Positions 10,901-36,858 of a DNA stretch of 64,000 nt are shown piece by piece. Each line of letters starts with the position of its first letter. Positions within the stretch are counted from its first letter, which is position 1. The DNA lies in NCBI GenBank assembly GCA_964454175.1, contig CAYVSA010000001.1, positions 22,170-86,169 of the forward strand, written 5' to 3'. This DNA is from an uncultured Pseudomonadota bacterium (GTDB taxonomy: Bacteria; BMS3Abin14). The position numbers were made by a program, and so were the translations under genes. The notes under the pieces were generated by a model that did no database searches, was not told the origin of the DNA, and saw only the letters and a list, made by a program, of their open reading frames with translations.

Positions 10901-10905
10901 GGGGT

Positions 10906-14179: not shown

Positions 14180-14236
14180 GTACCAAGTGTTATTTGCTCC
14201 CGGGTACGCAATATTGGTGAAGAAATTCTCTTTTCA

Positions 14237-14266: not shown

Positions 14267-14406
14267 CTTGCATCTGAATAAGTACTGCCTGCATACATTA
14301 TACTGAATACATTAGAGTTTTTGAGTAGCCTGGCTGTACAGTCCGGTTGAACTGGGGGGGCGGCATCCATGGTTGACGCGGCCTCCACGAGGGATTGGCT
14401 CGAGCG

Positions 14407-14781
14407 ATGCAAGAAGATCTAATTCTTGGTTACCTGCCCATATTCATTTTCCTGATAATTGTCGCGGGCATGGGGTCCATGATGATCATGGTCTCGGCGA
14501 TAATTGGAAGGAAAAACCCCTCAAAAGAAAAGCTATCCACCTACGAATGCGGAATGACTCCGACTAAGGACGCTCGCAGAAGACTGGACATCCGCTTTTA
14601 CCTGATCGCCATGCTATTTATCCTTTTCGATATCGAGGTAGTCTTCCTATATCCATGGGCTATCCTCTTTGACCGATTTGACCCCATCGTCTTCGGGTTC
14701 ATCGAGATGGTAATGTTTATCATCGTCCTGCTCTTCGGGTACATCTATGTGTGGAGGAAGGGTGCGCTTAACTGGTCATGA
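14407..14781 (+). CDS. nuoA: NADH-quinone oxidoreductase subunit A
   Basis: [30 protein letters not shown] and WRKGALNW. Confidence 0.96.
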
Positions 14782-15329
14782 AGAAGAATCGCAGCAGTTT
14801 TTCCAGAGGTCCGTTACCCACAGAAGATAATATCCTCCTGACTACAGTCAGCGCGGTGATGAACTGGGCTCAGCGCTCGTCCGTCTGGCCGCTTCAGTTC
14901 GGCCTGGCTTGCTGTGCCATCGAGATGATAGCCGTGGGATGCGCAAGATACGATATTGCAAGGTTCGGCGCAGAGGTTTTCAGGGCCTCCCCCAGGCAGG
15001 CCGACCTGATGATAGTTGCCGGCACTGTAACCAACAAGATGGCGCCCGTTGTAAAAAAGCTCTACGATCAGATGTCCGAGCCCAAGTGGGTGCTGGCCAT
15101 GGGAAGCTGCGCTACCTGCGGTGGTATCTTTCAGACCTACAGCGTGGTACCCGGTGTTAACCGTATCATACCGGTAGACGTTTACGTTCCTGGGTGCCCC
15201 CCAAGGCCCGAGGCCCTGCTCCACGGCCTTATGACCCTTCAGAACAAGATCGACAGCCAGGTCCATTTCCGCGCTGCGCCGCTGGATCTCAAGCCGGGTT
15301 TCAGGGGCCCCGGAATAAAGGATGACTGA
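14778..15329 (+). CDS. nuoB: NADH-quinone oxidoreductase subunit B
   Basis: [17 protein letters not shown] and [12 protein letters not shown]. Confidence 0.97.
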
Positions 15330-15332
15330 GAG

Positions 15333-15839
15333 ATGACTGTAGGTTGGAATAGACAGAATTTCTCAGGGGACAGCCCCGGAGAACACCCCGCTGTAAAGGC
15401 CATCGAAGAGAATTTCCCCGCGGCATTCATTGAGTCCGGATCCTTCAGGGGTGAAGTGTGGGCGGTAGTAAAACCTGAAAAATGCAGAGCTGTCCTGCAC
15501 TTCCTGGCAGAGGAGCCATCGCTCTCCTTTAATTACCTGTCCGACCTGACGGCCGTACACGAACCCCGCAAAGACGAACAATTCGAAATAGTATACCAGG
15601 TGTATTCCCTGTCAAGGCACTCCCGCTTCAGGGTCAAAACAAGGCTCGAAGAGGGCATGGAGGCCGACAGCGTTGTCTCCATCTGGCAGGGCGCTAACTG
15701 GCTCGAGAGGGAAGTTTACGATAATTTCGGTGTAGTTTTTTCCGGTCATCCCGACCTGAGGAGGATCATGAATCCTGAAGGTTTCGACGGCCACCCTCTG
15801 AGGAAAGATTTTCCCGTCGGCGGACGGGTGAAATGGTGA
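15333..15839 (+). CDS. nuoC: NADH-quinone oxidoreductase subunit C
   Basis: ANWLEREVYD.FG..F.GHPDLRRI and GHPLRKDFP. Confidence 0.96.
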   Translation: MTVGWNRQNFSGDSPGEHPAVKAIEENFPAAFIESGSFRGEVWAVVKPEKCRAVLHFLAEEPSLSFNYLSDLTAVHEPRKDEQFEIVYQVYSLSRHSRFRVKTRLEEGMEADSVVSIWQGANWLEREVYDNFGVVFSGHPDLRRIMNPEGFDGHPLRKDFPVGGRVKW

Positions 15840-15848
15840 GGTAGGATC

Positions 15849-17021
15849 TTGGCAAGACAGGAGATAATGACCATTAATATGGGTCCCCACCACCCCTCGA
15901 CCCACGGGGTGCTCAGGGTGATCCTTGAGCTGGACGGTGAGACGGTGATAAATGCCGTGCCGGATATCGGCTATCTCCACCGGGGCATAGAAAAACTCGC
16001 CGAGCACAAGAAATACATCCAGGTCCTGCCGCTCACCGACAGGCTGGATTACCTCGCTTCTGGTACGAACAACCTCGCCTATATCCTGGCAGTGGAAAAG
16101 CTGCTGGGTCTCGAAGCCCCCAGACGGGCCAGGTACATCAGAACCATATTCGCCGAGCTGACGAGGATCGGGAGCCATCTTCTCTGGCTGGGTACTCACG
16201 CCGCCGACATCGGAGCCATGACTGTGCTCCTTTACGGCATGAGAGAGCGGGAGGACGTCCTGGACATCATCGAGGAAACAGCGGGTACACGCCTCATGAT
16301 GACGTACTTCAGGCCAGGCGGAGTCGTGAGGGATCTCCCTCCCGGCTTTGACAAGAAGATAAAGAGCTTCCTGAAAACATTCCCCGCAAGGATCGACGAA
16401 TATGAAAGGCTTCTGACGAAGAACAGGATATGGCTCCAGAGGACTGTGGGCATCGGTACGATAAGCCGGGATGAAGCCGTATCCCTGGGGCTTTCGGGTC
16501 CGGCTCTGCGCGGTTCGGGAGTGGACTGGGATATCAGGCGTGACGAGCCTTACGAGGCCTATGATGAGATCGAGTTCGACGTCCCCGTTTATGAGGGCGG
16601 CGATGTCTATTCCAGGTATCTGGCCAGAATAGGTGAACTCAGGCAGAGCGTGCGAATGCTTCTTCAACTCGTGGAAGGCCTGCCCGAAGGGCCATATATC
16701 GAAAGGACCGCCAAGTACGTACTCCCTGCCAAAGAAAGGCTGGACAGCTCCATGGAGGCCATGATCCACCACTTCAAGCTCGTTGTTGAGGGTATGACCC
16801 CCCCTGTGGGCGAAGTGTACTCCACAATAGAATCTCCCAAGGGTGAGATCGGGTTCTACATCGTGAGCGATGGCAAGCCGCATCCGTACAGGCTCAGGAT
16901 CAGGCCGCCGTCTTTCGTAAACCTCCAGTCCCTGTTAACCATGGCAAAGGGGAACATGATTGCTGATGTTGTAGCAATTATCGGAAGTCTTGACATAGTT
17001 CTTGGGGAAATTGATCGGTAG
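15849..17021 (+). CDS. nuoD: NADH-quinone oxidoreductase subunit D
   Basis: NMGPHHPSTHGVLR, GYLHRGIEK and GSLDIVLGEIDR. Confidence 0.97.
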   Translation: MARQEIMTINMGPHHPSTHGVLRVILELDGETVINAVPDIGYLHRGIEKLAEHKKYIQVLPLTDRLDYLASGTNNLAYILAVEKLLGLEAPRRARYIRTIFAELTRIGSHLLWLGTHAADIGAMTVLLYGMREREDVLDIIEETAGTRLMMTYFRPGGVVRDLPPGFDKKIKSFLKTFPARIDEYERLLTKNRIWLQRTVGIGTISRDEAVSLGLSGPALRGSGVDWDIRRDEPYEAYDEIEFDVPVYEGGDVYSRYLARIGELRQSVRMLLQLVEGLPEGPYIERTAKYVLPAKERLDSSMEAMIHHFKLVVEGMTPPVGEVYSTIESPKGEIGFYIVSDGKPHPYRLRIRPPSFVNLQSLLTMAKGNMIADVVAIIGSLDIVLGEIDR

Positions 17022-17023
17022 CG

Positions 17024-17506
17024 ATGATGAAACTGTTCGATTCGGAAGAAACAAAAGAGATGGAGGGCATAGCATTACGCTATGCGGCTCCTGCATCCGC
17101 GATAATGCCGCTCCTGCACTTTGTACAGGAAAGGAAGGGCTATCTGGCCGAGGAGTACCTGGTCTTTATCGCCGATTTTCTGGAGATCCCCCACGTCAGG
17201 GCCTTCGAGGTGGCAACCTACTACACCATGTACTTCACTAAACCCGTAGGCAGGCACCTCATTCAAGTCTGCAGAAATCTGAGCTGCTCTGTAAACGGTG
17301 CGCCCGAAGTTATTGCATCTCTCAGGGAGACCCTGGGTGTTGGCATCGGTGAGACCACTTCCGACGGCATGTTCACGATCGTGGAAGTTGAGTGCATCGG
17401 CGCCTGCGACAAGGCGCCAGCCATGATGGTCGACGACAAACTCTTCGAGATGGTCAGCCCTGAAACCCTGGGGATGATACTGGATTCATACAGGAAGACC
17501 GCGTGA
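17024..17506 (+). CDS. nuoE: NADH-quinone oxidoreductase subunit E (copy 1)
   Basis: [2Fe-2S] ligands CRNLSC...CIGAC. Confidence 0.93.
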   Translation: MMKLFDSEETKEMEGIALRYAAPASAIMPLLHFVQERKGYLAEEYLVFIADFLEIPHVRAFEVATYYTMYFTKPVGRHLIQVCRNLSCSVNGAPEVIASLRETLGVGIGETTSDGMFTIVEVECIGACDKAPAMMVDDKLFEMVSPETLGMILDSYRKTA

Positions 17507-17507
17507 A

Positions 17508-18803
17508 ATGACTAAGATCCTGACCCGAAACATAGACCGGCCCAACCCGGCGAATATTGACTCGTACCTCTACAACGAGGGTTACCAGGCGCTTCCCATG
17601 GCACTGAATGATATGATGCCTGAAGATGTGATCGATGAGGTAAAGGCCTCCCGCATCAGGGGCCGCGGCGGTGCCGGGTTCCCGGCAGGCATGAAGTGGG
17701 ATTTTGCCTCCAGGGACCCAAGGGGGCCCAAGAACATTATTGCCAACGCCGATGAGGGTGAGCCCGGGACGTTCAAGGACAGGGTGCTCATCGAAAAAGA
17801 TCCCCACGCTCTCCTGGAGGGCATGGCCATAGCGGGCTACGCTGTCGGCGCTGAGTTGGGATTTGTCTACATACGGGGGGAATACCCGGAAGGCGCCAGA
17901 ATACTTGAAAAGGCCATCGCTGATGCAGAGGCCAGGTCGTTCCTTGGCAAAAACATCCTGAACTCGGGGTTCGATTTCACCATAACAGTTCACAGGGGTG
18001 CAGGTGCCTACATCTGTGGGGAGGAAACCGCCCTTATCGAGTCACTGGAGGGCAAGAGAGGCCAATCAAGGATCCGGCCGCCTTTCCCGGTGAACGTCGG
18101 CTACATGAATCTGCCAACAGTAGTTAACAACGTTGAGACCCTTGCTAATATCCCTCAGATCATTCTCAGGGGCGGTGAGTGGTATGCCGGGTTCGGAACC
18201 CGGGAGTGTACAGGCACCAAGCTCTACTCGATAAGCGGTAAGGTGGCCAGGCCCGGGGTATACGAATTGCCCATGGGGACCACACTCAGAGATCTGATAT
18301 TCGAGCACTGCGGCGGGATGAAGGACGGCAGGAGCTTCAAGGCCGCATTCCCGGGCGGTGCTTCCAGCGCCTGTCTTGACGAGACCGGGCTCGATGTCCA
18401 GCTGGACTTCAACTCCCTCGCGGCAGCTGGCAGTATGCTGGGTTCAGGGGCCGTCATGGTCCTCGATGATTCGGACGATATGGTCAAGGCTGTTCATGTC
18501 CTCATCAAGTTTTTCGAGCACGAGTCGTGCGGTAAATGCACTCCCTGCAGGGAGGGGCTGTTCTGGATAAGGCAGATATTGGACAGGATCCTCGCAGGGG
18601 GAGGGACCGAGAGCGACCTGGAACTTCTTCTGAACATAAGCGAAAATATTGCGTCCACTTCATTTTGCGGCCTTGGAGAAGCTTCGGTAAGCGCTCTGGT
18701 CAGCACTATTAAAAAGTTCAGGAGCGAATTTCTGGCTTACATAAACTCTCCTGAGGAAAAAGCCGAAGAAACATCGGCATCGGGGCAGGAGCAGGCATCG
18801 TGA
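17508..18803 (+). CDS. nuoF: NADH-quinone oxidoreductase subunit F (copy 1, canonical type)
   Basis: GRGGAGFP, ADEGEPGTFKDR, GAYICGEETAL and ESCGKCTPCREG. Confidence 0.95.
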   Translation: MTKILTRNIDRPNPANIDSYLYNEGYQALPMALNDMMPEDVIDEVKASRIRGRGGAGFPAGMKWDFASRDPRGPKNIIANADEGEPGTFKDRVLIEKDPHALLEGMAIAGYAVGAELGFVYIRGEYPEGARILEKAIADAEARSFLGKNILNSGFDFTITVHRGAGAYICGEETALIESLEGKRGQSRIRPPFPVNVGYMNLPTVVNNVETLANIPQIILRGGEWYAGFGTRECTGTKLYSISGKVARPGVYELPMGTTLRDLIFEHCGGMKDGRSFKAAFPGGASSACLDETGLDVQLDFNSLAAAGSMLGSGAVMVLDDSDDMVKAVHVLIKFFEHESCGKCTPCREGLFWIRQILDRILAGGGTESDLELLLNISENIASTSFCGLGEASVSALVSTIKKFRSEFLAYINSPEEKAEETSASGQEQAS

Positions 18804-21475
18804 TGGTCAAGATCGAAATTGACGGCCGTCAAGTTACTGTTAACGGCCACATCACCGTGCTGGAGGCTGCGAGCAAGCTCGGTATCTACATACCGACCTT
18901 CTGCCACCATCCAAGGCTCTCGGAGCTCGGCGCCTGCAGGATGTGCCTCGTGGAAGTGGAGGGCATGGGTAAACTGCAGACGGCCTGTACGCTTGCAGTT
19001 GCAGAGGGAATGGTGATCAGGACCAGCACTGACAGGGTGGAAAAATCCCGCCGCGCCATGCTCGAATTCCTGTTGATCAACCATCCACTGGAATGCACTG
19101 TGTGCGACGCTTCGGGAGAATGCACCCTCCAGGACTTCGCTTTCAAGTTCGGCAGCGCCGAGACGAGGTTCACCGAGAAAAAGAGGGTATTGCGCGACCA
19201 TATCATAAGCCCCCTCATCGACAGGAATCTGAACAGGTGCATCCAGTGCAAGCGGTGCGTTAGAATTTGTGACGAAGTTCAGGGCGTCACTGCCCTGGGT
19301 ATGTCCTACCGCGGGGCAAAGACTGTGGTGGGGCCATTTATGGAAAAATCACTGGACTGCGAATACTGCGGCCACTGCATATGGGCCTGCCCGGTGGGTG
19401 CCATCACTTCGCGGGTTATGAGACACAAGATCCGCACGTGGGAGATGGACAAGGCTGAGGCTATATGCGCGTTCTGCAGCTGCGGCTGCACGCTCACATA
19501 CAATCACAGGGACAACAGGGTCTACAAGGTCACCCACGCTGACGGCAGGGGTGTTAATCAGGGCAGTCTCTGCTCGAGGGGTTATTTCGGATATGATGTG
19601 ATAAACAGCCCGGAAAGGCTAACGACACCACTTGTCCGAAAAGATGGTGAACTGGTTCAGGCAACATGGGAGGAGGCCCTTGAGACCGTTGCATCCGCGC
19701 TGGGCAAAGCTGCCGGTGAGGGCGGTGAAAACGCGGTGGGAGGCATCGTATCAGCTCGGCTTACAAACGAGGAACTATATCTGTTTCAGAAGCTGATGAG
19801 ATCCTGCCTGTCCAGCAACTGTGTTGATGTGACCACCGGAGAGTGGAACAGAACAGTCCTTCCAGTACTTGAGGAAAGGCTGGGTGTCTTTGCTGCCACC
19901 AACTCCTTAGACGAGGTCACCTATGCTGACTCCCTCATCATAATCGGCTGCGACATTACGGTGGAAAACCCCATAACTGGTATAAAGGTGAAGTCGGCCA
20001 TCCACAGAGGGGGGTCGGTTTCCGAGATCAACCCCAGGAAAACAGCCCTGTCCCGCATGACAAAGAGGACCATGCTGGTTAGGCCCGGCAACGAACTTAC
20101 CCTGGTTAAGGGCTTGATCAGGGCGGTCTTTGACGAGGATCTGATCAGCCAGGAGGACGGGAGCACCTGCAGCAACCTGGATGAACTCAGGCTGTCGGTA
20201 TTAGACCAGGACCTGAAGTCGATCTCCGATGAAACAGGAGTGTCTCAGGAAGACATCACAGGCCTTGCCAGGGAGTTCATGGGGGCGCGCAGGGCGTCCA
20301 TAATATTCGGTGAGTCTGCTGTCATGACTGAGCAGGGTCCGGCTCTTATCAATGCACTTATCGACCTGCTCATGCTCACCGGGAAATTGGGTCAGGAGGG
20401 TTTCGGCCTGTATCCCGTAAACGGTACAGCCAATTTTCAGGGAGCAGTGGACATGGGGGTCGCGCCGGCTCACCTGCCTGGCCACGCCCCCCTTGCTGTA
20501 AAGGGCTCGGCTAAAATGCTGGCCGACGCATGGAAGTCCTCTATCCCGGAAGGCCAGGGTCTTTCGGCTCCACAGATGCTTAAGGCTGCAGTGGAAGGTT
20601 CCCTGAAAACGCTCTATGTAGTGGGTGTAGACATAACCGGTTCTTTCCCCGACAGTTCGATCGCAGAAAAGGCCCTGTCTAACCTGGATTTCCTTGTTGT
20701 GCAGGACCTTTTCCTCACGGATACAGCAAGGGCGGCAGATGTTGTTCTGCCCGCTGGCAGCCTGGCTGAAAAAAACGGCACCCTTACCAACGTGGAAAGG
20801 CGAATCCAGAGAACACGCAGGGCCATCGACGGGCTGGGGAAGTCCATGCCTGACTGGAGGATCTTTTCTGAACTCGGCGTAGCCCTGGGCCATATGGAAA
20901 TGAAATATGTGAATGCTGCAGAGGTGCTGGACGAGATCGCGCAGACCGTGCCCTACTACTCCGGCATCAACCATCGAATACTGGCAGATAATGGGCTCCA
21001 GTGGCCCTTCACCCAGGATGACGCCAGGGAAGTTTACCATGAAGGTTATCTCGGGACCCGCCACCTCCTTTCAGGAGGAGTCGCTGACAGTCTCAGGTCA
21101 TTTGCAGCCGTGAAATCCTGGGGCAAAGTGCCAGCGAACGCCGATTATCCCTATACCCTGGTCACAGGAGATCTCCTGTCCCATTCGGGCACCTTCACGC
21201 GCTACTCTGAATCGTTGAACAAGATAGACTCTGAAGGTGCTGTCGTTATGAATCCGGAAACCGGGGCCAGCCTGGGCATAGATGATGGAGGAAAAGCCAG
21301 GGTTGTTTCGGCCCATGGTGAACTAACTGTAAAGACCATTTATTCAGAAGACCTCATGGAGGATATTTTCTTCCTTCCGAAACATTTTGCCGACGTACCT
21401 GCAGGCAGGTTGATGAGTGCGTCGGGAAACGGCAGCGAGACTGCTGTTGTGCAGGTACGCGTGGAAAGAGCGTGA
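18800..21475 (+). CDS. nuoG: NADH-quinone oxidoreductase subunit G (copy 1)
   Basis: GACRMC, HPLECTVC, CIQCKRC, CEYCGHC...CP and CAFCSCGC Fe-S motifs; molybdopterin-fold body without a Mo ligand. Confidence 0.88.
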   Translation: MMVKIEIDGRQVTVNGHITVLEAASKLGIYIPTFCHHPRLSELGACRMCLVEVEGMGKLQTACTLAVAEGMVIRTSTDRVEKSRRAMLEFLLINHPLECTVCDASGECTLQDFAFKFGSAETRFTEKKRVLRDHIISPLIDRNLNRCIQCKRCVRICDEVQGVTALGMSYRGAKTVVGPFMEKSLDCEYCGHCIWACPVGAITSRVMRHKIRTWEMDKAEAICAFCSCGCTLTYNHRDNRVYKVTHADGRGVNQGSLCSRGYFGYDVINSPERLTTPLVRKDGELVQATWEEALETVASALGKAAGEGGENAVGGIVSARLTNEELYLFQKLMRSCLSSNCVDVTTGEWNRTVLPVLEERLGVFAATNSLDEVTYADSLIIIGCDITVENPITGIKVKSAIHRGGSVSEINPRKTALSRMTKRTMLVRPGNELTLVKGLIRAVFDEDLISQEDGSTCSNLDELRLSVLDQDLKSISDETGVSQEDITGLAREFMGARRASIIFGESAVMTEQGPALINALIDLLMLTGKLGQEGFGLYPVNGTANFQGAVDMGVAPAHLPGHAPLAVKGSAKMLADAWKSSIPEGQGLSAPQMLKAAVEGSLKTLYVVGVDITGSFPDSSIAEKALSNLDFLVVQDLFLTDTARAADVVLPAGSLAEKNGTLTNVERRIQRTRRAIDGLGKSMPDWRIFSELGVALGHMEMKYVNAAEVLDEIAQTVPYYSGINHRILADNGLQWPFTQDDAREVYHEGYLGTRHLLSGGVADSLRSFAAVKSWGKVPANADYPYTLVTGDLLSHSGTFTRYSESLNKIDSEGAVVMNPETGASLGIDDGGKARVVSAHGELTVKTIYSEDLMEDIFFLPKHFADVPAGRLMSASGNGSETAVVQVRVERA

Positions 21476-21488
21476 GGAGGTATAGACG

Positions 21489-21956
21489 ATGATCGATATC
21501 AGCCAGCTCAAGGCAATATCCTCCCTTGAAGGAGTGTCAGAGGACGCACTGTCGGAATTGGCCAGGGTAATGCAGAAGAGGGTCTACAAAGACTCTGACC
21601 CTATTTTTAACGAGAACACCGAAGGCGGTGACCTTTATCTCGTGGGCGAGGGATCCGTGAAGTTGGAGAAAAGGGCAAAAGAGGGAGAGGCCCAGAGCCT
21701 GTCAGTGGTTCGTGCCGGCGATTTCCTCGGGATAATGACCTTCCTTGTGGGCGGCAAGCACTCTGCAAGCGCCGTGGCCCATGACGACTGCACACTTTAC
21801 GTCCTGGACAAGGCCTCTTTTGATGCTTTCGTTGAAAAGTTCCCGGCCGATGCCAACAGCATCTTCATGATATTTATAGAACGGCTCATCGAATCAGTCA
21901 GAAGCATGTATGAGCGGTACATCGATATGGTCAACTACATGTGGAGGTGGCGGTGA
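21489..21956 (+). CDS. Stand-alone cyclic-nucleotide-binding domain protein
   Basis: IFNENTEGGDLYLVGEGSVKL...GDFLG...SASAVA fits the CNB beta-barrel; no HTH; RBS GAGGAGG. Confidence 0.85.
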   Translation: MIDISQLKAISSLEGVSEDALSELARVMQKRVYKDSDPIFNENTEGGDLYLVGEGSVKLEKRAKEGEAQSLSVVRAGDFLGIMTFLVGGKHSASAVAHDDCTLYVLDKASFDAFVEKFPADANSIFMIFIERLIESVRSMYERYIDMVNYMWRWR

Positions 21957-22474
21957 ACCCTGAGGAAATTGAGGGATACGAGGAAGAAGAAGAGCTCGAT
22001 CTTTCTCCCGTCAATGACATACTGAGTGACCTGGGCGACGCGAAGGGGATGCTGATCCCGCTTCTGCAGGAAGTCCAGAAGGTTTTCGGGTATGTACCTG
22101 AAGACGCCGCCAATATGGTTGCCGATGGGCTGGGCCTTTACCGCAGCCAGGTCTATGGTGTTCTGACATTTTATACGCAGTTCCACCTGAGCCCCAGGGG
22201 ACGGCATATCATACGCGCATGTTCCGGGACTGCCTGCCACGTCAGGGGCGGTAAGAGCGTTATTGCCAGGCTGGAGAATCTCCTGGAGATCGAACATGGA
22301 GAGACCACAGAAGACGGGCTTGCTTCCTTTGAAAAAGTTGCCTGCCTCGGGGCGTGCGGTCTCGCCCCGGTGATCATGATAGACAACGATGCCTTCGGAC
22401 AGGTGGATCCAACAAAGACCGAGCGGATAATCGAGAACCTGCGCGAGGTGTCCGGCACACAGAAAAGTGATTGA
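21953..22474 (+). CDS. nuoE: Second NuoE/HydC-like [2Fe-2S] subunit
   Basis: LIPLLQEVQ..FGY, CSGTACH...CLGAC; probable GTG start 21953 overlapping the upstream stop (GTGA), with RBS GGAGG. Confidence 0.9.
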   Translation: MNPEEIEGYEEEEELDLSPVNDILSDLGDAKGMLIPLLQEVQKVFGYVPEDAANMVADGLGLYRSQVYGVLTFYTQFHLSPRGRHIIRACSGTACHVRGGKSVIARLENLLEIEHGETTEDGLASFEKVACLGACGLAPVIMIDNDAFGQVDPTKTERIIENLREVSGTQKSD

Positions 22475-22504
22475 TCGGCCGTAACAGGGAGGGCCGAAAG
22501 AGAT

Positions 22505-25500: not shown

Positions 25501-25588
25501 GGACTTCGCTGAGGTTGAACTGGGTTTTTCCAAAGAAGAGGCTATGAAAGAGGCCAGGCGCTGCCTGCGCTGTGACATTTCTGATTAA
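22505..25588 (+). CDS. NuoF/HydB-like flavoprotein fused to a GltD/NfnB-like NADPH-FAD oxidoreductase
   Basis: N-terminal thioredoxin-like domain (GTCG, GCIGMC); NuoF core; then PCQHVCP, CGRVCHHPCESKC, GGGPSG, GGGNTA, YRR, GVFAGGD and EARRCLRC. Confidence 0.9.
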   Translation: MSKSSNDKLIVLGMGTCGLASGARGVLSQVEEELTSLKLDVPILKTGCIGMCYQEVLLDVSLPGRTRVTYAKVQPEMVSKIIESHVVKGKPVNDYAIGQIQQNGEKAYKGIPTYDEMDFFAKQKRIVLRRCGFIDPDKIEDYLDTDGYKAAEKALTTLSPTVIREIVKKAGLRGRGGGGFPTGLKWEFCATAAGEPKYLICNADEGDPGAFMDRSVLEGDPHALLEGMIIAAYAIGAEYGYIYCRAEYPLAIERLGTAIARAEEKGFLGKNIFGTDFSFTLRIKEGAGAFVCGEETALMASIEGKRGMPRSRPPFPAHKGLWGKPSNINNVETFACVAPIILGGADSYSSIGTEGTKGTKVFALTGKINNTGLIEVPAGTQLKEIIYDIGGGIVGGGKFKAAQLGGPSGGCLPAEIVETPIDYDSLIEAGAMMGSGGVVIMDERTCMVDVARFFLNFTTSESCGKCVPCRLGTKTMLSILERITAGKGTMQDLVNLEEMGAQIKTTSLCGLGQTAPNPVLSTIRYFRHEYEAHILNKRCPAVVCKEVISSPCQHVCPIETDVPAYVTLIGQGKFTAALDLIRMTNPLPAVCGRVCHHPCESKCRRGELDRPISIRNLKRVASDNAAADAATGKYQIKSKKISGKGKKVAIIGGGPSGLTAAHFLALKDFSPVIFEKQRVAGGMLMLGIPEYRLPRQTLNHEIRAIEDMGVQIHYSTPVGEAVSFDQLRMDHEAVFIASGAHVDLKMGIPGEDSEGVYESLSFLRRVNLGEEVALGNKVAVVGGGNTAIDASRIARRLGADVTILYRRTQNEMPADDMEIHEALLEGIELETLVAPVKVLSSGGKMTGATCIRMELGEPDSSGRRRPVPIEGSEFDIHLDNLIVAVSGKPDLSYLTDKHGIGLSRWDTVDVHPYTQMTNVEGVFAGGDVVTGPWMVIDAIAAGKRAAAHMELFLNGEEVAPLYDVTKPNISGIEAIELTDEDMTLTRPDMPTLEVVKRLKDFAEVELGFSKEEAMKEARRCLRCDISD

Positions 25589-25636
25589 CGGGAGCAGCCT
25601 GCGTTAAAGCAGTTAATGAGGAGTAGGGAAAAGAGC

Positions 25637-28420: not shown

Positions 28421-28424
28421 TGAG

Positions 28425-29423
28425 ATGATCTGCCCGGAATGCAATCTGCTCATACCGGAGGACAGCCGGTTCTGCAAGGAGTGCGGCTATAAACTGGAGG
28501 CCAGTGTGGAGGAGCGTGATGCTCTCTCCAACCAGGAAAAGGCGGAGAAGCTTTACCGGGAGGGTATCGTCCAGTACCACCAGGGTCAGTTTGACGAGGC
28601 TATTTCACTTTGGGACGAGGCGGTTGGTCTTATTCCGGACTTTCAAATGACGAACTACTACCGGGGAGTGGCGTACTACGACAAGGGCATGCTGTCTGTT
28701 GCCATGGAGTGCTTTAAAAAATCTGAGGCTTCGCATCCCACCTCCTCTGCTGTCCACTACCGTCTTGGTCTGACTTATTATGCATTGGGGCTTTTAAGCG
28801 AATCTGAATACCACTTCAAGAAAGTGGAGGCACTGATACCCAATACCGCCCAGATCCACTACAGGCTGGGCCTTCTGTACCAGAAAAACGCGGCCCTGGA
28901 CGAGGCCGTTTCAGAACTGCTGAAATCACTGGAATTTTCACCTGACTTTGCCAGAGCTTACTTCACACTCGGAGTGACTTATTTCCAGAAGGGAATGCTT
29001 GCCGAAGCAGCCGAGGCGCTGCGCAAAGTTGTGGATATTTCACCGAGATATGTCATGGCCTACTATCACCTGGGCATTGTGCTGTTTCACAAGGGCAACC
29101 TTCCCGAAGCCATCAAGGCATTTGACGAGGCGGTTCTGCTGTCCCCGAACTTCACGGCGGCCTACTACCACCTGGGAGTGTCCCACGCCAGGAAGGGTGC
29201 CCACGAAGATGCAGTGTCAAGCTTCATCAAGGTGAACGGTCTGGACCCCATGGATTCCTCAGCTCTCTACCACCTTGGGAACAGTTATGTGCATCTGGGG
29301 ATGCTGGACAAGGCTGAAGATACACTGCAGGAGGCACTGAGGCTTAACCCCGACAACTCCGAGGCCTACTTCCTCCTTGAAAAGGTTGGAGAGATCAAGC
29401 GCTCCGGGGCGTTGGAGTACTAG
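28425..29423 (+). CDS. Zinc-ribbon plus TPR-repeat protein
   Basis: CPEC...FCKECG followed by about 8 TPRs (AYYHLG...A); RBS GGAGG before ATG 28425. Confidence 0.9.
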   Translation: MICPECNLLIPEDSRFCKECGYKLEASVEERDALSNQEKAEKLYREGIVQYHQGQFDEAISLWDEAVGLIPDFQMTNYYRGVAYYDKGMLSVAMECFKKSEASHPTSSAVHYRLGLTYYALGLLSESEYHFKKVEALIPNTAQIHYRLGLLYQKNAALDEAVSELLKSLEFSPDFARAYFTLGVTYFQKGMLAEAAEALRKVVDISPRYVMAYYHLGIVLFHKGNLPEAIKAFDEAVLLSPNFTAAYYHLGVSHARKGAHEDAVSSFIKVNGLDPMDSSALYHLGNSYVHLGMLDKAEDTLQEALRLNPDNSEAYFLLEKVGEIKRSGALEY

Positions 29424-29435
29424 GGGCAAAAAAAT

Positions 29436-30455
29436 ATGGATAACACAACCATGTACATACTTCTTTCTCTTTTCAAGATCGTTCTGGTCCTTGCCATAAC
29501 GCTGACTTCGGTCCCGATAATGGTCTGGGTGGAGAGGAAGGTGTCCGGCCACATCCAGAACAGGCACGGACCGCTCTACGTTGGGCCCTTCGGGCTGCTG
29601 CAGCCCTTTGCCGACGTTGCCAAGCTGCTCCTTAAGGAAGACATTATACCCACCGAGGCGGACAAGGTGCTTTACGTTCTGTCGCCGCTCATGTCCTTTG
29701 TACCGGCGCTTCTGACTTTTGCGGTCATACCCATCGGGCCGCACCTGAACATAACAGACATCAACATCGGCATAGTCTACGTTCTGTCCGTTTCATCGCT
29801 GGGTGTATACGGGCTTGTTATGGCAGGGTGGTCGTCCAACAATAAATACGCCCTCCTGGGCGGTCTCAGGTCAGCGGCGCAGATGATAAGCTACGAGATA
29901 ACCCTGGGGCTGTCCATTATAGGCGTTCTTATGTACTCCAGGTCACTTTCAATGGTCAGGATCGTGGAGATGCAGGCAGACACGTGGTTCGTCCTGCCCC
30001 AGTTCCTGGGATTCATTCTGTTTCTCGTGGCATCTTTTGCAGAGACCAACAGGCTGCCCTTTGACCTTCCGGAGGCGGAACAGGAGCTCATAGCGGGCTA
30101 CCACGTCGAGTATTCCAGCCTCAAGTTCGCCCTGTTCTTCCTTGCCGAGTACGTTGCCATGCTCTCGGCTTCGTGTCTTATCGTCACCCTTTTCTGGGGG
30201 GGCTGGCTGCCGATCCCTTACATCGGACCGCTGGTGGAGGGCCTCCTGCCGCAGGTTGTAGTAATGTACGTAATGCCTATCCTGTGGTTCCTGGTTAAGG
30301 TTGCTTTCTTCATGTTCTTCTTCGTGTGGGTTCGCTGGACCTTCCCCAGGCTGCGTTACGACCAGCTGATGTCACTCGGCTGGAAAGTGCTGCTTCCCCT
30401 GGCGGTATTAAACGTTTTCATCTCTGGCGTCATCAGGATGTCGGGAGTTATGTAG
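29436..30455 (+). CDS. nuoH: NADH-quinone oxidoreductase subunit H
   Basis: ERKVSGHIQNRHGP, ETNRLPFDLPEAEQEL and PRLRYDQLM. Confidence 0.97.
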   Translation: MDNTTMYILLSLFKIVLVLAITLTSVPIMVWVERKVSGHIQNRHGPLYVGPFGLLQPFADVAKLLLKEDIIPTEADKVLYVLSPLMSFVPALLTFAVIPIGPHLNITDINIGIVYVLSVSSLGVYGLVMAGWSSNNKYALLGGLRSAAQMISYEITLGLSIIGVLMYSRSLSMVRIVEMQADTWFVLPQFLGFILFLVASFAETNRLPFDLPEAEQELIAGYHVEYSSLKFALFFLAEYVAMLSASCLIVTLFWGGWLPIPYIGPLVEGLLPQVVVMYVMPILWFLVKVAFFMFFFVWVRWTFPRLRYDQLMSLGWKVLLPLAVLNVFISGVIRMSGVM

Positions 30456-30466
30456 GAGACTGACTA

Positions 30467-30913
30467 TTGGGTTTGATCACGAATATATTCCAGACTGACC
30501 TTTTAAAAGGTCTTTCACTGACACTCAAGAACTTCTTCGTTCGGCCTGTCACCCTGAGGTACCCGGAAGAGAAGTGGGAGATGCCCGAACGGTTCAGGGG
30601 CGCCCAGGTGCTCAAGAGGCACGAAGATGGAAAAGAACGATGTGTGGGCTGCGGCCTGTGTGGGGAGATCTGTCCTTCCAGCGCTATTACTATTGTCACC
30701 TCGGAGGGAGTTGACCACGCAAAGAAGATAGACTTCTACCAGGTCGATCTTGGCCTTTGCATCTACTGTGGTTTCTGCGAGGAGGTTTGCCCGGTCAACG
30801 CAGTTTTCATGGGTAAGGATTACGAGCTGTCTGTGACCGATCCCGGCAGGCTCAAAGTTTCCAAAGAACAGATGCTCGAGAAGGGGGACTCCCCCCGATA
30901 CGATAAACTCTAG
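30467..30913 (+). CDS. nuoI: NADH-quinone oxidoreductase subunit I
   Basis: VTLRYPEE and two CxxCxxCxxxCP motifs. Confidence 0.95.
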   Translation: MGLITNIFQTDLLKGLSLTLKNFFVRPVTLRYPEEKWEMPERFRGAQVLKRHEDGKERCVGCGLCGEICPSSAITIVTSEGVDHAKKIDFYQVDLGLCIYCGFCEEVCPVNAVFMGKDYELSVTDPGRLKVSKEQMLEKGDSPRYDKL

Positions 30914-30920
30914 GGAGTTA

Positions 30921-31436
30921 GTGATGGGCCTTCAGGACATATTTTTCTACTATTTTGCCATCGTATCCGTTGTTACTGCTCTGCTGGCGGTCTCTCGATA
31001 CAATCCTGTCCACTCGGTGCTGTTCCTGGTTCCCTGCTTTTTCCACATAGCGGGGCTGTTCGTGCTGCTGGGGGCAGAGTTCCTGGCTGCCATCCAGATA
31101 CTGATCTACACAGGTGCCATCATGGTCCTGTATCTGTTTGTCATCGCCCTGCTTAACCTCTCAGGCATCAGGGGACGCAAGATCACTCACCGGCAGAGTT
31201 TCCTCGCGGCCATCGCCGTGCTGGTCCTTGTTGTCCAGCTCGTAGTGCTGGCTATCACAGCGACCTTCCCCGGGCCTTTCGAGAAATTCGCGTCGGCGTC
31301 GTTTCTGGGTAACACAGAGGCGGTGGGGTCGGTGATGTATACAACCTTCCTGTTCCCCTTCGAACTGGCTTCCCTGGTTCTGCTCGTCGCTATTTTCGGG
31401 GCGGTTGTCCTTGCCAAGAGGGAGGCGGGTGAATGA
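30921..31436 (+). CDS. nuoJ: NADH-quinone oxidoreductase subunit J
   Basis: [30 protein letters not shown] and PFELAS. Confidence 0.95.
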
Positions 31437-31735
31437 TCACACTGACCCACTATCTGGTGCTGGCCGCTATTATTTTCCTGATCGGAGTTCTCGGTGTGCT
31501 CATGAGGCGCAACATCATCATAATTCTCCTGTCAATTGAACTGATGCTCAACGCCGTCAATATCAACCTTGTGGCCTTCTCACATTACTTTCACAACATG
31601 GCTGGCCAGGTTTTCGTGTTTTTCGTTCTTACCGTTGCCGCTGCAGAAGCTGCGGTGGGATTGGCTATTGTCGTCGCACTCTTCCGCAACCGCGAGACGG
31701 TCAACGTGGATGAGATCAACCTGATGAAGGGCTAG
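31433..31735 (+). CDS. nuoK: NADH-quinone oxidoreductase subunit K
   Basis: [14 protein letters not shown] and [11 protein letters not shown]. Confidence 0.97.
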
Positions 31736-31746
31736 GAGATCAAACG

Positions 31747-33681
31747 ATGTTAGAAGCTGTAGCCCTGGTTCCTCTTTTTCCGCTGTTGGCGGTGCTGACA
31801 AACCTCCTGCTTGGCAGAAGGCTGTCGAGGGCTGCCGTGGGTGTTCTGGCCTGCGGAGCGCTCGCAGCGTCATTCCTGGCTTCGGTAGTTGCAGTGTTCG
31901 GCCTGGCTACGGCAGAGCATGGGGCCAGGTCTTTTACCTACACGCTCTACGAGTGGATCGGCTCCGGGAGCTTCACCCTGGACCTGGGATTGTTACTGGA
32001 CCCACTCTCGGCGGTGATGATCCTGGTGGTGACCGGCGTTGGGTTCTTGATCCACGTCTACAGCATCGGCTACATGCACCACGACGAGGGTGTAAGGAGA
32101 TATTTCCTCTACCTCAACCTCTTCGTTTTTGCCATGCTCCTGCTCGTGCTCGGAGACAGCTACCTGCTCATGTTTGTCGGCTGGGAGGGAGTTGGCCTTT
32201 GCTCCTACCTGCTCATCGGGTTCTGGTTTAAAAAAGAGAGTGCAAGCTCAGCCGGCCGCAAGGCCTTCGTGGTTAACAGGGTGGGGGACTTCGGTTTCAT
32301 CCTTGGCATGCTTCTCATCACCGTCAAATTCGGTACCCTGTCTTACAATGAGATCTTCGCCAATGCCGGGCACCTGTTCGCCAAGGGTGATCCCACGGTG
32401 ACAATAATAACGCTCCTGCTCTTTGTGGGGGCCACAGGGAAGTCCGCCCAGCTTCCCCTGCACGTCTGGCTTCCAGACGCAATGGAGGGCCCGACCCCGG
32501 TTTCGGCCCTCATCCATGCTGCAACAATGGTTACTGCCGGCGTCTACATGATCTGCCGGAGCCATGTTCTTTACGAACTCGCACCACTGTCCATGACGGT
32601 GGTTGCTGTCATAGGTGTCACCACTGCCTTCTTTGCCGGGACTATCGCCCTTGTACAGAACGACATCAAGAGGGTGCTTGCCTATTCCACGGTGAGCCAG
32701 CTCGGATATATGTTCCTTGCTGCAGGCGTGGGCGCCTACACTGCCGCTATCTTTCACCTCATGACCCACGCTTTTTTCAAAGCCCTTCTCTTTATGGGTT
32801 CGGGCAGCGTTATACACGGCCTGGACGGAGAACAGGACATTCGTAAAATGGGCGGCTTAAAGGACATTATGCCCGTCACACACAAGACGTTCCTCATTGC
32901 TTCCCTCGCCATATCGGGGATCCCGCCGCTTGCCGGGTTCATGTCAAAGGATGAGATACTCTACTCGGCATTTAACTCCAGTCATGGCGGCGGAGCAGGG
33001 TTTATATTGTGGCTGGTGGGAATAATCACAGCGCTCATGACCGCTTTTTACATGTTCAGGCTTGTTTACAGGACTTTTTACGGTGAATCGAGGCTGGATC
33101 CTGAAGTCGCCAAACACGCTCACGAATCACCTCCAGTAATGACAGTGCCGCTTTCGATACTGGCTTTCCTTTCCATAGTGGGTGGTTTCGCGGGTGTACC
33201 CATATTCAAAAAGTTAAACATCATGCACAACTGGCTGGGCCCGTTGTTCGAGGCAGTAGCGGAACACGGGGCAGATGCAGCCGAGACAGCACACCACCTT
33301 TCTACCGAGCTGGGCCTCATGGGACTGTCGGTCCTGGTGGCGGCAGGGGGCATAGGTCTTGCGTTCCTCATCATCCTGCGCAAGCCGGAAGTGTCCGAGG
33401 AGCTGAGAAACGATTACAGTTTCCTCTACGACCTGTTCCTTAACAAGTGGTGGGTCGACGAACTGTACGACACGGTAATCATAAAACCCCTCAGGGCAGT
33501 ATCCCGTTTCTTCTGGACGGATTTCGACGTCAAGCGGATAGACGGGGTTCTTCACGGGACTGCCGAGGCCGCACAGCGTTCCGGCGGGTTCCTGGCAAGC
33601 CTGCAGACGGGTTTTGTGCAGAACTACGCACTGGTGATGACTGTCGGCGTAGCCCTGATGCTTGTGCTGGCCTTCTTTTAG
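31747..33681 (+). CDS. nuoL: NADH-quinone oxidoreductase subunit L
   Basis: GKSAQLPLHVWLPDAMEGPTPVSALIHAATMV. Confidence 0.97.
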   Translation: MLEAVALVPLFPLLAVLTNLLLGRRLSRAAVGVLACGALAASFLASVVAVFGLATAEHGARSFTYTLYEWIGSGSFTLDLGLLLDPLSAVMILVVTGVGFLIHVYSIGYMHHDEGVRRYFLYLNLFVFAMLLLVLGDSYLLMFVGWEGVGLCSYLLIGFWFKKESASSAGRKAFVVNRVGDFGFILGMLLITVKFGTLSYNEIFANAGHLFAKGDPTVTIITLLLFVGATGKSAQLPLHVWLPDAMEGPTPVSALIHAATMVTAGVYMICRSHVLYELAPLSMTVVAVIGVTTAFFAGTIALVQNDIKRVLAYSTVSQLGYMFLAAGVGAYTAAIFHLMTHAFFKALLFMGSGSVIHGLDGEQDIRKMGGLKDIMPVTHKTFLIASLAISGIPPLAGFMSKDEILYSAFNSSHGGGAGFILWLVGIITALMTAFYMFRLVYRTFYGESRLDPEVAKHAHESPPVMTVPLSILAFLSIVGGFAGVPIFKKLNIMHNWLGPLFEAVAEHGADAAETAHHLSTELGLMGLSVLVAAGGIGLAFLIILRKPEVSEELRNDYSFLYDLFLNKWWVDELYDTVIIKPLRAVSRFFWTDFDVKRIDGVLHGTAEAAQRSGGFLASLQTGFVQNYALVMTVGVALMLVLAFF

Positions 33682-33780
33682 GTAATATTTTTGAGGTCAG
33701 GTAATGACGGCTTTGACGAAAACATGACGGCCGGAAAATAACAGACGCACTTAAACGAAAAAAGGACTGAGAAGGAATAA

Positions 33781-35373
33781 ATGGAAACACTTAACATGCC
33801 AATCTTATCGGCGATCGTCTACCTTCCAGCTGTTGGTGCGCTCCTGCTGGCCCTCTTTGTGCCGGGCCGTAAAACAGGGCTGGTGAAGAAGGTCGCCCTG
33901 GGTGTTGCTCTGGCTGATTTCGTACTGTCTCTTCTGCTCCTCGCAAGGTTCAACGTCGGGTCCGGCGACTTTCAGCTAGTTGAAAGAGTGAACTGGATTT
34001 CCGGGATTGGGATCCAGTACCTGATGGGTGTTGACGGAATAAGCCTGCTCCTGGTCCTGCTCACAACAATGCTGGGGGCTCTGGCAATACTCTCGTCTTT
34101 CACGGCCATCACCGACAGGGTGAAGGAGTACATGGTATGCCTGCTCCTTCTGCAGACCGGTATGCTGGGTGTGTTTTTCGCCCTTGATATAGTGCTCTTT
34201 TACGTGTTCTGGGAAGTTATGCTAATTCCCATGGCGCTGCTCATCGGTATATGGGGAGGCCCGAGGCGGGTCTATGCTGCGGTTAAGTTCTTCCTGTACA
34301 CGCTCGTCGGGTCCCTTTTCATGCTCATCGGCTTCCTGGTCATCTATTTTTCCTATCATTCAGCCACCGGGATCTACACTTTTGACCTGACGCGGCTGAT
34401 GGCGGCCGATTTCCCGTCAAACGTGCAGACATGGGCCTTCTGGGCGCTGTTTCTTGGCTTTGCCATCAAGGTGCCGCTCTTCCCGTTCCACACATGGCTC
34501 CCTGATGCTCACGTTGAGGCACCCACTGCGGGCTCTGTGATCCTGGCAGGCGTACTGCTCAAAATGGGAACCTACGGATTCATACGTTTTTCAATTCCCG
34601 TCCTTCCGGAGGCCTCCATTAAAGCGGTTCCGGCCATCGCTACCCTCTCAATAATCGGCATCATTTACGGGGCCCTCGTTGCCTGGGTGCAGCATGATGT
34701 GAAGAAACTGGTAGCTTACTCTTCGGTGAGTCACCTTGGATTCGTGATGATCGGGCTGTTCACCTTCACTATCCAGGGCATTCAGGGCAGTGTCCTTCAG
34801 ATGATCAACCACGGCATTTCAACCGGTGCACTGTTCCTCCTGGTCGGAGTACTATACGAGCGGCGCCATACAAGGATGATGGACGATTTCGGTGGTCTTG
34901 CTGCACAGCTGCCGCTTTTTGCCGCTGTCTTCGGGATAGTCACATTCTCTTCAATCGGTCTGCCGGGACTGAACGGATTTATCGGGGAGTTCCTGATACT
35001 CCTTGGCACCTTCAAGGCAGGCATGTACGGGTTTGGAGCGCTCGCTGCCACGGGGATCATCCTTGGAGCTGTGTACATGCTGCACATGTACAAGAACGTC
35101 ATGTTCGGCGAGATCGTACACGATGAAAACAAAAAGATATCAGATTTCAATTTCAGGGAGATCATAACACTGGCCCCCCTGGTAGTACTCATTTTCTGGG
35201 TTGGCCTTTATCCCAAGCCGTTTCTGAATATCCTGGAGCCCTCGGTAACCAGGGTCGTGGTAAGAATGGACACGGCAAGGAGCGGGATGGAGCAACTTAA
35301 AAACGACAAGACCGGCGAAGTTCAAGTGGCTGGGACCGAAGACCTGCACATCGCTGTCGATAATAGGGAGTAG
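33781..35373 (+). CDS. nuoM: NADH-quinone oxidoreductase subunit M
   Basis: KVPLFPFHTWLPDAHVEAPTAGS and AYSSVSH. Confidence 0.97.
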   Translation: METLNMPILSAIVYLPAVGALLLALFVPGRKTGLVKKVALGVALADFVLSLLLLARFNVGSGDFQLVERVNWISGIGIQYLMGVDGISLLLVLLTTMLGALAILSSFTAITDRVKEYMVCLLLLQTGMLGVFFALDIVLFYVFWEVMLIPMALLIGIWGGPRRVYAAVKFFLYTLVGSLFMLIGFLVIYFSYHSATGIYTFDLTRLMAADFPSNVQTWAFWALFLGFAIKVPLFPFHTWLPDAHVEAPTAGSVILAGVLLKMGTYGFIRFSIPVLPEASIKAVPAIATLSIIGIIYGALVAWVQHDVKKLVAYSSVSHLGFVMIGLFTFTIQGIQGSVLQMINHGISTGALFLLVGVLYERRHTRMMDDFGGLAAQLPLFAAVFGIVTFSSIGLPGLNGFIGEFLILLGTFKAGMYGFGALAATGIILGAVYMLHMYKNVMFGEIVHDENKKISDFNFREIITLAPLVVLIFWVGLYPKPFLNILEPSVTRVVVRMDTARSGMEQLKNDKTGEVQVAGTEDLHIAVDNRE

Positions 35374-35388
35374 GGGAGAGCAAGGCTG

Positions 35389-36858
35389 ATGCTGACGATA
35401 CTTCTTCCGGATTTCAGGGTTATCGCACCGGAGCTGATACTGACTGGCACTGCTTTTGCGGTGATACTGTGGGAGCTTATCACCCGCGTAAAGGACCATA
35501 CAGTTTCAGCCATGATCTCAGCTGCAGGCGTTCTGGCTGCCCTGGCTGTTGCGGTAAAGTACTCAAGCCTGGTTATCTCAACATTTTCTGGAACCATCGT
35601 TCTCGACCCCTATGCGTCATTTTTCAAAGTAATTTTCCTCTTCGGGCTGATCCTCACGATCACGATTTCTCTGCGGTATATAAAGGATGGCGGCACAGCT
35701 GACCACGCCGAGTACTATGCTCTTTTACTCCTTGCCACAGTGGGTATGATGGTGATGGCCATCGGACGCGAGCTGGTAACCATCTTTCTGGGTCTTGAAC
35801 TTCTGTCCATGTCCCTTTACATTCTTGCCGGGTTTTTCAGGGATGACGGCAGATCGAACGAAGCGGCGGTCAAATACTTTATCCTGGGATCCTTTGCCAC
35901 CGGTTTCATGCTCTTCGGGATGTCATATGTCTACGGCGTTGCTGGCAGTACCCACCTGAAATCTATCGCTTCCATTCTTTCACAACACCCCGGGGCATTA
36001 AAATCCAATGCACTGCTCCTGGGGATGTTCATGATCATAATGGGGTTCGGGTTCAAGGTGTCTGTTGTGCCTTTCCACCAGTGGACACCTGATGTTTATG
36101 AAGGTGCCCCAACGCCGGTGACCGCTTTCATGTCTGCCGGGCCGAAAGCTGCCGGGCTGGCCGCACTTATCAGGATTCTAATGGAAGCCATGCCCCAGCT
36201 GATGGGGAAATGGGAACTCCTGTTGACGATCCTGGCCATCCTGACCATGACGCTGGGCAACCTCGGTGCCCTGGCACAGAAGAACATTAAACGCATGCTG
36301 GCTTATTCGTCCATCGCCCACGTGGGATACATCATGATCGGCATCGTTGCTTCCGTGAATGGGCGTTTTGACAGGGCTCTTTCCTCGGTGTTGTTTTACC
36401 TCCTGGCCTATACTTTCATGAACATCGGTGCTTTCGGGATATTGATATTCATGAAGCGTGAAGGAGTGAAGGGAGATAACCTTGAAGACTTCACGGGCCT
36501 TTCACGCAGAGCACCAGGAGTGGCCCTGGCCATGCTCGTCTTTTTGTTTTCTTTGGCGGGGATACCTCCAACAGCGGGCTTTGCTGCAAAATTGTCTATA
36601 TTCTACGCTGCTGTCCAGGGAGGCTACTATACGTTAGTCGTGATCGGCATCCTGAACAGCGCGGTCGCAGCTTACTACTACCTGAGAGTGATCGTTGTCA
36701 TGTATATGCAGGAACCTTCCACCCAGGAAGGTTTCTCTGGCACCTCGCCGCTCCTGTGGGCGGGAATTTTCATTGCTCTTGCCGGCACGCTGGTCCTGGG
36801 AATACTTCCCGGCGGCGTCCTGGAAGCGGCCCGCCTGTCCGTCATGTCCCTCCTCTAA
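35389..36858 (+). CDS. nuoN: NADH-quinone oxidoreductase subunit N
   Basis: EAAVKYFILG, PFHQWTPDVYEGAP and KRMLAYSSIAH. Confidence 0.97.
   Translation: MLTILLPDFRVIAPELILTGTAFAVILWELITRVKDHTVSAMISAAGVLAALAVAVKYSSLVISTFSGTIVLDPYASFFKVIFLFGLILTITISLRYIKDGGTADHAEYYALLLLATVGMMVMAIGRELVTIFLGLELLSMSLYILAGFFRDDGRSNEAAVKYFILGSFATGFMLFGMSYVYGVAGSTHLKSIASILSQHPGALKSNALLLGMFMIIMGFGFKVSVVPFHQWTPDVYEGAPTPVTAFMSAGPKAAGLAALIRILMEAMPQLMGKWELLLTILAILTMTLGNLGALAQKNIKRMLAYSSIAHVGYIMIGIVASVNGRFDRALSSVLFYLLAYTFMNIGAFGILIFMKREGVKGDNLEDFTGLSRRAPGVALAMLVFLFSLAGIPPTAGFAAKLSIFYAAVQGGYYTLVVIGILNSAVAAYYYLRVIVVMYMQEPSTQEGFSGTSPLLWAGIFIALAGTLVLGILPGGVLEAARLSVMSLL

Follow-up and report, generated by a model that had tools for sequence, protein, structure and literature searches.

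The window analysed here is a 64,000-nucleotide stretch from an uncultured Pseudomonadota bacterium of the GTDB lineage BMS3Abin14 (assembly GCA_964454175.1, contig CAYVSA010000001.1, positions 22,170 to 86,169), and at 14407–36858 on the plus strand it carries an operon for respiratory complex I that encodes two electron-input modules, or heads. All 19 genes are intact and co-oriented, in the order nuoABCD–E1F1G1–CNB–E2–F2::GltD–G2–TPR–nuoH..N, where CNB denotes a stand-alone protein with a cyclic-nucleotide-binding fold and TPR a zinc-ribbon protein with TPR repeats. The 14 core subunits of the canonical complex, A to N, are all present. The genes of the Q module (nuoA, nuoB, nuoC and nuoD, 14407–17021, recognised with Pfam and NCBIfam; nuoA has two candidate starts, 14395/14407–14781) come first, and those of the membrane arm and NuoI (nuoH, I, J, K, L, M and N, 29436–36858) come last. 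NuoB has the tandem Cys of cluster N2 (CCAIEM), NuoI the motifs for two clusters, and NuoD the motifs GPHHPSTHG and RLDY, whose His and Tyr we take to mark the quinone site. Instead of the single N-module per operon that is the rule for complex I, there are two E, F and G sets, with 37% (E1/E2), 46% (F1/F2) and 38% (G1/G2) identity between the paired subunits. The body of the enzyme is single: tblastn of the organism's own genome (98.5% complete) turned up no further copy of nuoA, B, C, D, H, J or K, nor another L/M/N set.

This layout, including one Q module and one membrane arm for two E/F/G sets, is what a preliminary description of the sequence had proposed, and its account of a tightly packed operon with no strong terminator in the insert also stands. 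From nuoG1 to nuoH the spacings run from −32 to +30 nt when the longest open reading frame starts are taken, and the sole larger gap in the operon, 99 nt, lies between nuoL and nuoM. A terminator scan of 13900–33800 returned 21 sites against 18.9 ± 4.6 in shuffled sequence, which is the chance level, and all seven plus-strand sites fall within genes, none between them. The GC content at third codon positions is 0.64–0.67 for the extra genes, inside the 0.61–0.73 range of the flanking nuo genes; this match, together with conservation in relatives, rules out an assembly artefact or a recent foreign insert.

The first head is encoded directly downstream of nuoD. E1 (17024–17506, plus strand, as for all genes of the operon) is a [2Fe-2S] subunit with four Cys that scores 161 bits on TIGR01958 (cut-off 142.4), F1 (17508–18803) is an NADH/FMN subunit with ADEGEPGTFK and GAGAY motifs that scores 577.6 on TIGR01959 (cut-off 558.65), and G1 (18800–21475, 891 aa) has five Fe-S motifs, no Mo ligand and a score of 496.1 on TIGR01973 (cut-off 470.05). 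All three thus exceed the NCBIfam cut-offs for NuoE, NuoF and NuoG, as NuoD does its own. F1 is free of any Bfu extension, having no N-terminal thioredoxin-like domain, no B2 site and no ferredoxin domain, and G1 clusters with NuoG of single-head operons in a FastTree analysis of 27 rows (support 0.99). By these features, head 1 is a canonical head, predicted to oxidise NADH.

The second head is of another kind. E2 (21941–22474) has four Cys and finds its best PDB matches in the BfuC/HydC-type [2Fe-2S] subunits HydC, StnA and NfnC, and F2::GltD (22505–25588, 1027 aa) joins a BfuB core (residues 1–549) to a GltD/NfnL-like module for two [4Fe-4S] clusters, FAD and NADP(H). The closest solved relatives of E2 and of the F2 core are subunits of the electron-bifurcating enzymes HydABC, StnABC and NfnABC, and a Foldseek search with the F2 model returned NfnB, StnB and HydB on top. 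The flavobicluster typical of Bfu enzymes (an FMN site with clusters B1 and C1) is present, with N3/B1 ligands at C463, C466, C469 and C509 of F2 and the four Cys of E2; so is the B2 site with its conserved His (C446, H533, C539 and C544), conserved without exception in all 98 aligned fusions. The N-terminal thioredoxin-like domain of F2 has three Cys (17, 48 and 52), candidate ligands of a B5 site, and a GMxxCG pattern as in NfnB of Thermococcus sibiricus, in which the B5 site holds Zn according to PMC12018979. The GltD module begins directly after the B2 motif CPAxxC, where Bfu enzymes have the B3/B4 ferredoxin domain; that domain is absent from F2::GltD but present in F2 of three relatives (G011, G003 and G005). 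The module has eight cluster Cys, a FAD site and a GxGxxA/YRR site (G782–A787, Y805-R806-R807), a Rossmann motif classed as NADP(H)-type in PMC7483475. An AlphaFold model of the whole chain (pLDDT 88.9, pTM 0.81) has scores that fit one folded unit. By motifs and structural kinship, head 2 is derived from the Bfu (HydABC) family, and it appears to take NADPH. The proposal of an NADH/NADPH second head, possibly bifurcating, finds support in the Bfu motifs, the structure matches and the NADP(H) site. This head has, however, lost the port for ferredoxin by which Bfu bifurcation is defined, and it cannot carry out the standard NADH/ferredoxin reaction.

G2 (25616–28420; likely start 25637, giving 927 aa) carries five Fe-S motifs, no GltD domain and a C-terminal extension of about 35 residues. 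It was at first taken for a plain NuoG, a view that has to be dropped: G2 derives from the alpha subunit of formate dehydrogenase (FDH), and in FastTree it lies nearer FDH while G1 groups with ordinary NuoG. Database names accordingly imply that the insert is an NAD(P)-linked FDH. G2 scores 661.9 on TIGR01591 (cut-off 666.25), its best PDB matches are FdsA-type FDHs, and its JGI label is formate dehydrogenase alpha; yet in 11 of 11 aligned G2 proteins of the family the Mo-ligating Cys/Sec is replaced by Gly, Ala or Ser and the Arg of RGQNN by Ser, with the adjacent His kept (DSVARFGH versus CARLCH; SEYNN versus RGQNN), and the genome has separate Fdh-N genes. The loss of Mo ligand and catalytic Arg rules out G2 as an active FDH, and the insert as a whole is very improbable as one. 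Having no catalytic site, G2 would need an electron outlet for its five clusters.

Two further genes flank the second set. CNB (21489–21956; PF00027, alignment and structure model) has the fold of the N-domain of CRP (model pLDDT 89, TM 0.77–0.80 to CRP-family N-domains) with a conserved C-terminal helix and no DNA-binding domain, and its phosphate-binding cassette is non-canonical, with Ile and an invariant His in place of the cAMP-binding Glu and Arg. Members of the subfamily turned up in 19 of 401 genomes, in 9 of 151 of a further phylum and in 6 of 6 of a second phylum; a profile search of representatives was dominated by multi-CNB proteins and gave few subfamily members, without gene context. 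Of 16 genomes inspected outside the window's family f1 and f8, 15 have the gene directly 3' of a NuoG-like gene, and eight of these, from another phylum, have plain single-head nuoABCDEFG–CNB–H operons. Since CNB is standard after nuoG in single-head operons, it counts as part of the ancestral operon, and the true insert, E2–F2–G2–TPR, begins at E2 and not, as first described, at CNB. The suggestion that CNB controls which head docks is unsupported, because these eight single-head operons carry it and the cAMP-binding residues are lost; yet within the window's family it occurs only where both heads do (11 of 11 two-head genomes, none of the three single-head genomes G003, G005 and G007). By its distribution, CNB is an old NuoG-associated accessory protein. 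Loci L209–L216 and L187, single-head operons of another phylum, regularly have a CNB-fold gene between nuoG and nuoH, two of them (L214 and L216) seeming to pass from nuoK to nuoM without nuoL. At L181–L184 (G275 and G118), Bfu E and F precede a split NuoG-like gene (pieces of 346 and 542 aa) and CNB, and about 30 kb of sequence there contains no nuo genes.

The TPR protein (28389/28425–29423, 332 aa, Pfam TPR) has a CxxC..CxxC zinc ribbon whose four Cys are invariant in 9 of 9 aligned sequences. Among two-head operons it is conserved like the core subunits (70–73% identity, against 55% in G005). A role in head choice was proposed for it too; it persists in the single-head operon of G005, and it probably serves head 2 as an adaptor or in assembly.

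A check of synteny showed that the insert is not unique to this assembly, and the arrangement recurs across the phylum. Among 16 genomes of the phylum, all of one family, 11 have both heads: seven in an operon contiguous from nuoD or earlier to nuoH (G000, G001, G004, G008, G009, G010 and G011), three on contig fragments (G006, G012 and G014) and one at two separate places (G002). F2::GltD is the form in ten of the 11; the exception, G011, has the ferredoxin form, while G004 of the same genus has the fusion. An alignment-based search with CNB found 12 metagenome loci, which may overlap the 16 genomes; nine have a G1 gene or fragment before CNB–E2, ten have F2::GltD and one has the ferredoxin form.

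The heads also occur singly. G003 (99% complete) and G005 (97%) have head 2 only, with a ferredoxin-type F2 in an otherwise complete operon ABCD–E2–F2–G2–(TPR)–H..N, and their sole NuoG-like match is 60–62% identical to G2 and 39% to G1. Conversely, G007 (98% complete) has only the G1 orthologue, and thus head 1 alone, in an otherwise complete nuoA–N operon; G013 (80%), whose contig ends within G1, probably matches it in head content, and no match was found in G015 (71%). A separate HoxEFU-like module of E, split F and a short G (234 aa) was also seen in G007 (L054, contig C138). In a tree of concatenated NuoB, C, D and I from 13 genomes, G003, G005 and G007 nest with the two-head genomes G010 and G008 (supports 91 and 87), and the F2 of the two-head locus L171 is sister to the sole F2 of G003 (support 98). 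Such nesting of single-head operons among two-head ones points to separate losses, against which stands the distinct, shorter clade formed by the G2 of G003 and G005. In the F2 tree, which bears on the direction of the swap between GltD and ferredoxin modules, the ferredoxin forms are nested within the GltD forms, with supports of only 82–86. Because relatives have either head alone in complete operons, and each of their genomes a single NuoG-like gene, one head probably suffices and the heads are probably interchangeable, in keeping with the swappable heads of the preliminary description.

The same comparisons bear on the possibility that head 2, although transcribed with the nuo genes, works as a soluble NADPH:NAD+ transhydrogenase or diaphorase, and that only head 1 docks in two-head genomes. 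Fusions of the BfuB::GltD type are common, with 5257 of 7999 scored candidates matching the junction region at E ≤ 1e-80, and the best 120 junction matches include entries named as Bacillota, Chloroflexota, KSB1 and Poribacteria; in G017 and G033 such fusions have no nuo genes in the 15–20 kb covered, G005 has an orphan E2–F2::GltD pair, and the FDH-like placement of G2 would suit a soluble enzyme. Against this, G2 would be a dead-end wire, yet it is the more conserved of the two G subunits. In conservation head 2 exceeds head 1 (F2 core 79–91% versus F1 76–83%; G2 70–72% versus G1 62–66%, more distant relatives), and it keeps its position between nuoG and nuoH across eight genera or fragments thereof. 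Moreover, orthologues of G2 are the only NuoG-like genes of G003 and G005, and NfnAB is already present in G000. The soluble enzyme, raised as an alternative from the start, is weakened by these points and is now judged improbable.

A separate two-head operon exists in the second phylum, sampled with six genomes. In G022 and G041 the order is nuoABCDHIJK, extra antiporter genes, LMN, canonical E and F, a fused G, CNB, Bfu E/F of the ferredoxin type and a second CNB, the fused G being a 1788-aa chain of two Mo-less NuoG-like proteins. In G042 the order agrees as far as the fused G, seen there as one open frame with a match of 1658 residues, and there are two CNB matches; G344 has a single Bfu head. 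Loci L160–L161 (G041) and L044, L045 and L151 (G022) place about three extra antiporter-like genes in the complex I operon. The halves of the fused G do not group with G1 and G2 in FastTree or quick IQ-TREE analyses, in which branches are long, and orthology with G1 and G2 is thus not supported; the two-head state therefore probably arose twice.

The fused chain is an argument that both heads sit on one particle, with one G on NuoI and the other tethered, directly or via TPR or CNB, the two taking turns at the socket or the second sending its electrons by way of the first. The length of G2 tracks the two-head state (922–927 aa in nine two-head genomes, 869–872 aa in two single-head ones), as does CNB within the phylum, and Mo-less NuoG/Fdh-like domains mediate oligomers in StnC according to PMC12018979. 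The fused halves are, however, not orthologues of G1 and G2, whose genes are not adjacent in the window; the kin are not independent, so that the tail and CNB pattern amounts to about two loss events; and retention of the extra clusters is not special, being found in several single-head NuoG. A tethered pair is accordingly regarded as unlikely, if a little less so than the soluble enzyme.

Several known systems resemble parts of this operon. In the Nuo-Bfu complex predicted by Schut et al. 2022 (PMC9304861), NuoEFG gives way to BfuABC, whose genes lie within a nuoA–N cluster, and NADH and ferredoxin would reduce menaquinone with better proton pumping. The window likewise has Bfu-type genes amid nuoA–N, and G003 and G005 fit that description, but the window operon keeps a canonical E1F1G1 beside the Bfu-type head and, as in ten of the 11 two-head genomes, exchanges B3/B4 for a GltD/NADP(H) module where Nuo-Bfu uses ferredoxin. 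Canonical 14-subunit enzymes (Thermus thermophilus Nqo1–14, Escherichia coli NuoA–N) share all core genes and the N2 and quinone-site motifs; the window differs by five extra genes and a second N-module, and by a G1 that keeps the second ferredoxin-domain cluster motif. StnABC and NfnABC (PDB 8oh5, 9bov and 9n5u; PMC7483475 and PMC12018979) combine BfuC, a BfuB core, a GltD/NfnL-like NADP(H) domain and a Mo-less NuoG/Fdh-like domain. Their GltD, however, sits in the A subunit, on the mid-potential arm, and B keeps the ferredoxin domain, whereas in head 2 GltD occupies the ferredoxin port on the B subunit (F2), and the A arm is left open towards NuoI. SfrAB of Geobacter sulfurreducens, a tricarboxylic acid (TCA)-cycle anaerobe, pairs GltD-like NADPH and NuoG-like subunits and is a proposed entry of NADPH into respiration, but by its description (PMC7483475 and PMC2825233) it has two subunits, lacks a BfuB/BfuC core and is encoded apart from nuo. 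The second complex I cluster of Candidatus Kuenenia (KsCSTR_45490–45710) is also large and non-standard, with an unusual input module, but the description in PMC7709395 gives it one nuoEFG and a speculated coupling to CO2 reduction, though a second head could lie there too.

Only the reverse case, one nuoEFG with two bodies, appears in the accessible text of PMC4453560, and no two-head operon is found there or in the corresponding parts of PMC4758237, PMC11238625, PMC7709395, PMC2825233, PMC3543383 and PMC2881027. The literature searched, whose scope stopped short of subscription papers and supplementary figures (including those of PMC9304861 and PMC4758237), held neither two N-modules in one nuo operon nor a CNB gene in nuo operons. 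The two-head operon itself is real and conserved.

Our preferred reading, which we consider rather probable, is that the heads are alternatives on one pump and that head 2 links NADPH, with or without NADH, to menaquinone. Gene content, motifs, conservation and the single-head relatives are observed, while docking, substrates, direction and quinone are inferred. One body (NuoABCD and H–N) would take either head at the NuoI/NuoCD socket, so that two populations of enzyme would coexist. Head 1 would oxidise NADH, and head 2 would use NADP(H) in place of ferredoxin at the low-potential port of its Bfu-derived module, so that electrons might pass from NADPH through FAD, two [4Fe-4S] clusters, the mobile E2 cluster, FMN/N3, the G2 clusters, NuoI and NuoB to menaquinone. 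Whether head 2 merges electrons of NADPH and NADH (confurcation) or oxidises NADPH alone seems about equally likely either way, and in reverse it could make NADPH from quinol and proton-motive force. With redox potentials from Table 1 of PMC9304861, four protons per two electrons to menaquinone could be pumped up to a calculated 103 mV with NADH, 128 mV with NADH and NADPH, 153 mV with NADPH and 158 mV with NADH and ferredoxin. Because the mean donor potential is lower, head 2 would raise the force against which the pump works (about 128–153 mV versus 103 mV), and head 1 would be suited to a low force or to flow in reverse.

Several observations weigh against alternative heads of this kind. 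The sole G2 proteins of G003 and G005 form their own shorter clade, sister to two-head G2 and without its C-terminal tail, so that docking may not carry over to the G2 of the window; both sole-head-2 operons use ferredoxin-type F2, and F2::GltD was never found as the only head of an operon. The orphan pair of G005 lies between tRNA-synthetase genes with no NuoG-like gene nearby (L034:9748–13343), so E2–F2::GltD can exist apart from the operon; it may share the G of the nuo operon, as two EF modules on one G, or act alone. The fused G of the second phylum suggests that heads can be linked rather than swapped, NfnAB and Rnf already give a route for NADPH, and the phylum has no cultured member. 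As to the quinone, MenA and MenG are over cut-off in G000, but neither MenB over cut-off nor MqnA or MqnC was found in any of five genomes searched; salvage of a naphthoquinone head group is possible. MenA adjoins an NMT1/THI5-like binding protein at L134:3039–5034 (G000:C67).

G000 encodes Rnf, NfnAB, one NiFe hydrogenase large subunit, Fdh-N, 31 proteins with at least two CxxCH motifs and a monomeric isocitrate dehydrogenase, presumably NADP-specific, which occurs in 13 of the 16 phylum genomes. PntB and CdhC were not found over cut-off in five genomes searched. The isocitrate dehydrogenase, the missing PntB and the MenA and MenG matches are context in favour of a head that links NADPH to menaquinone. 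Overall, G000, taken to be an anaerobe, resembles a Geobacter-like respiring heterotroph. Fragments of the heme-copper oxidase or NO reductase family lie at contig ends of G000 (C108:5–859 and C64:76–507) and occur in none of four relatives searched. Beside the operon, divergent from nuoA across a 290-nt gap, window positions 9594–14104 hold hemL, F0 ATP synthase genes (atpI-like, atpB and atpE) and an 11-heme cytochrome c, and hemL occupies the same place beside most nuo operons seen in the family. Just upstream of the window, at L131:16720–18660, another GltD-like protein (647 aa) has counterparts in most family genomes.

A bolder combination is that exchanging or tethering two heads sets the energetics of complex I, with head 2 a Bfu-type conformational confurcator that reversibly converts NADH and NADPH to two menaquinol, NADPH and ferredoxin cassettes interchangeable within one genus (G004 versus G011), a two-head design that arose twice, and the CNB-fold protein an unrecognised accessory subunit of complex I in many anaerobes; as a whole, this is tentative and rather doubtful. 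The operon bears on two open questions, namely the driving force for complex I in anaerobes with a menaquinone pool and the route by which NADPH of the TCA cycle enters respiration. For the question of whether NADH and NADPH can be coupled by a Bfu core in the absence of ferredoxin, the soluble E2–F2::GltD pair offers an uncomplicated target for expression. On one genomic scaffold the family offers a natural series, from an NADH head only, through a Bfu/ferredoxin head only and both together, to both with the ferredoxin port turned into an NADP(H) module, and this series makes the Nuo-Bfu proposal and the modularity of heads directly comparable.

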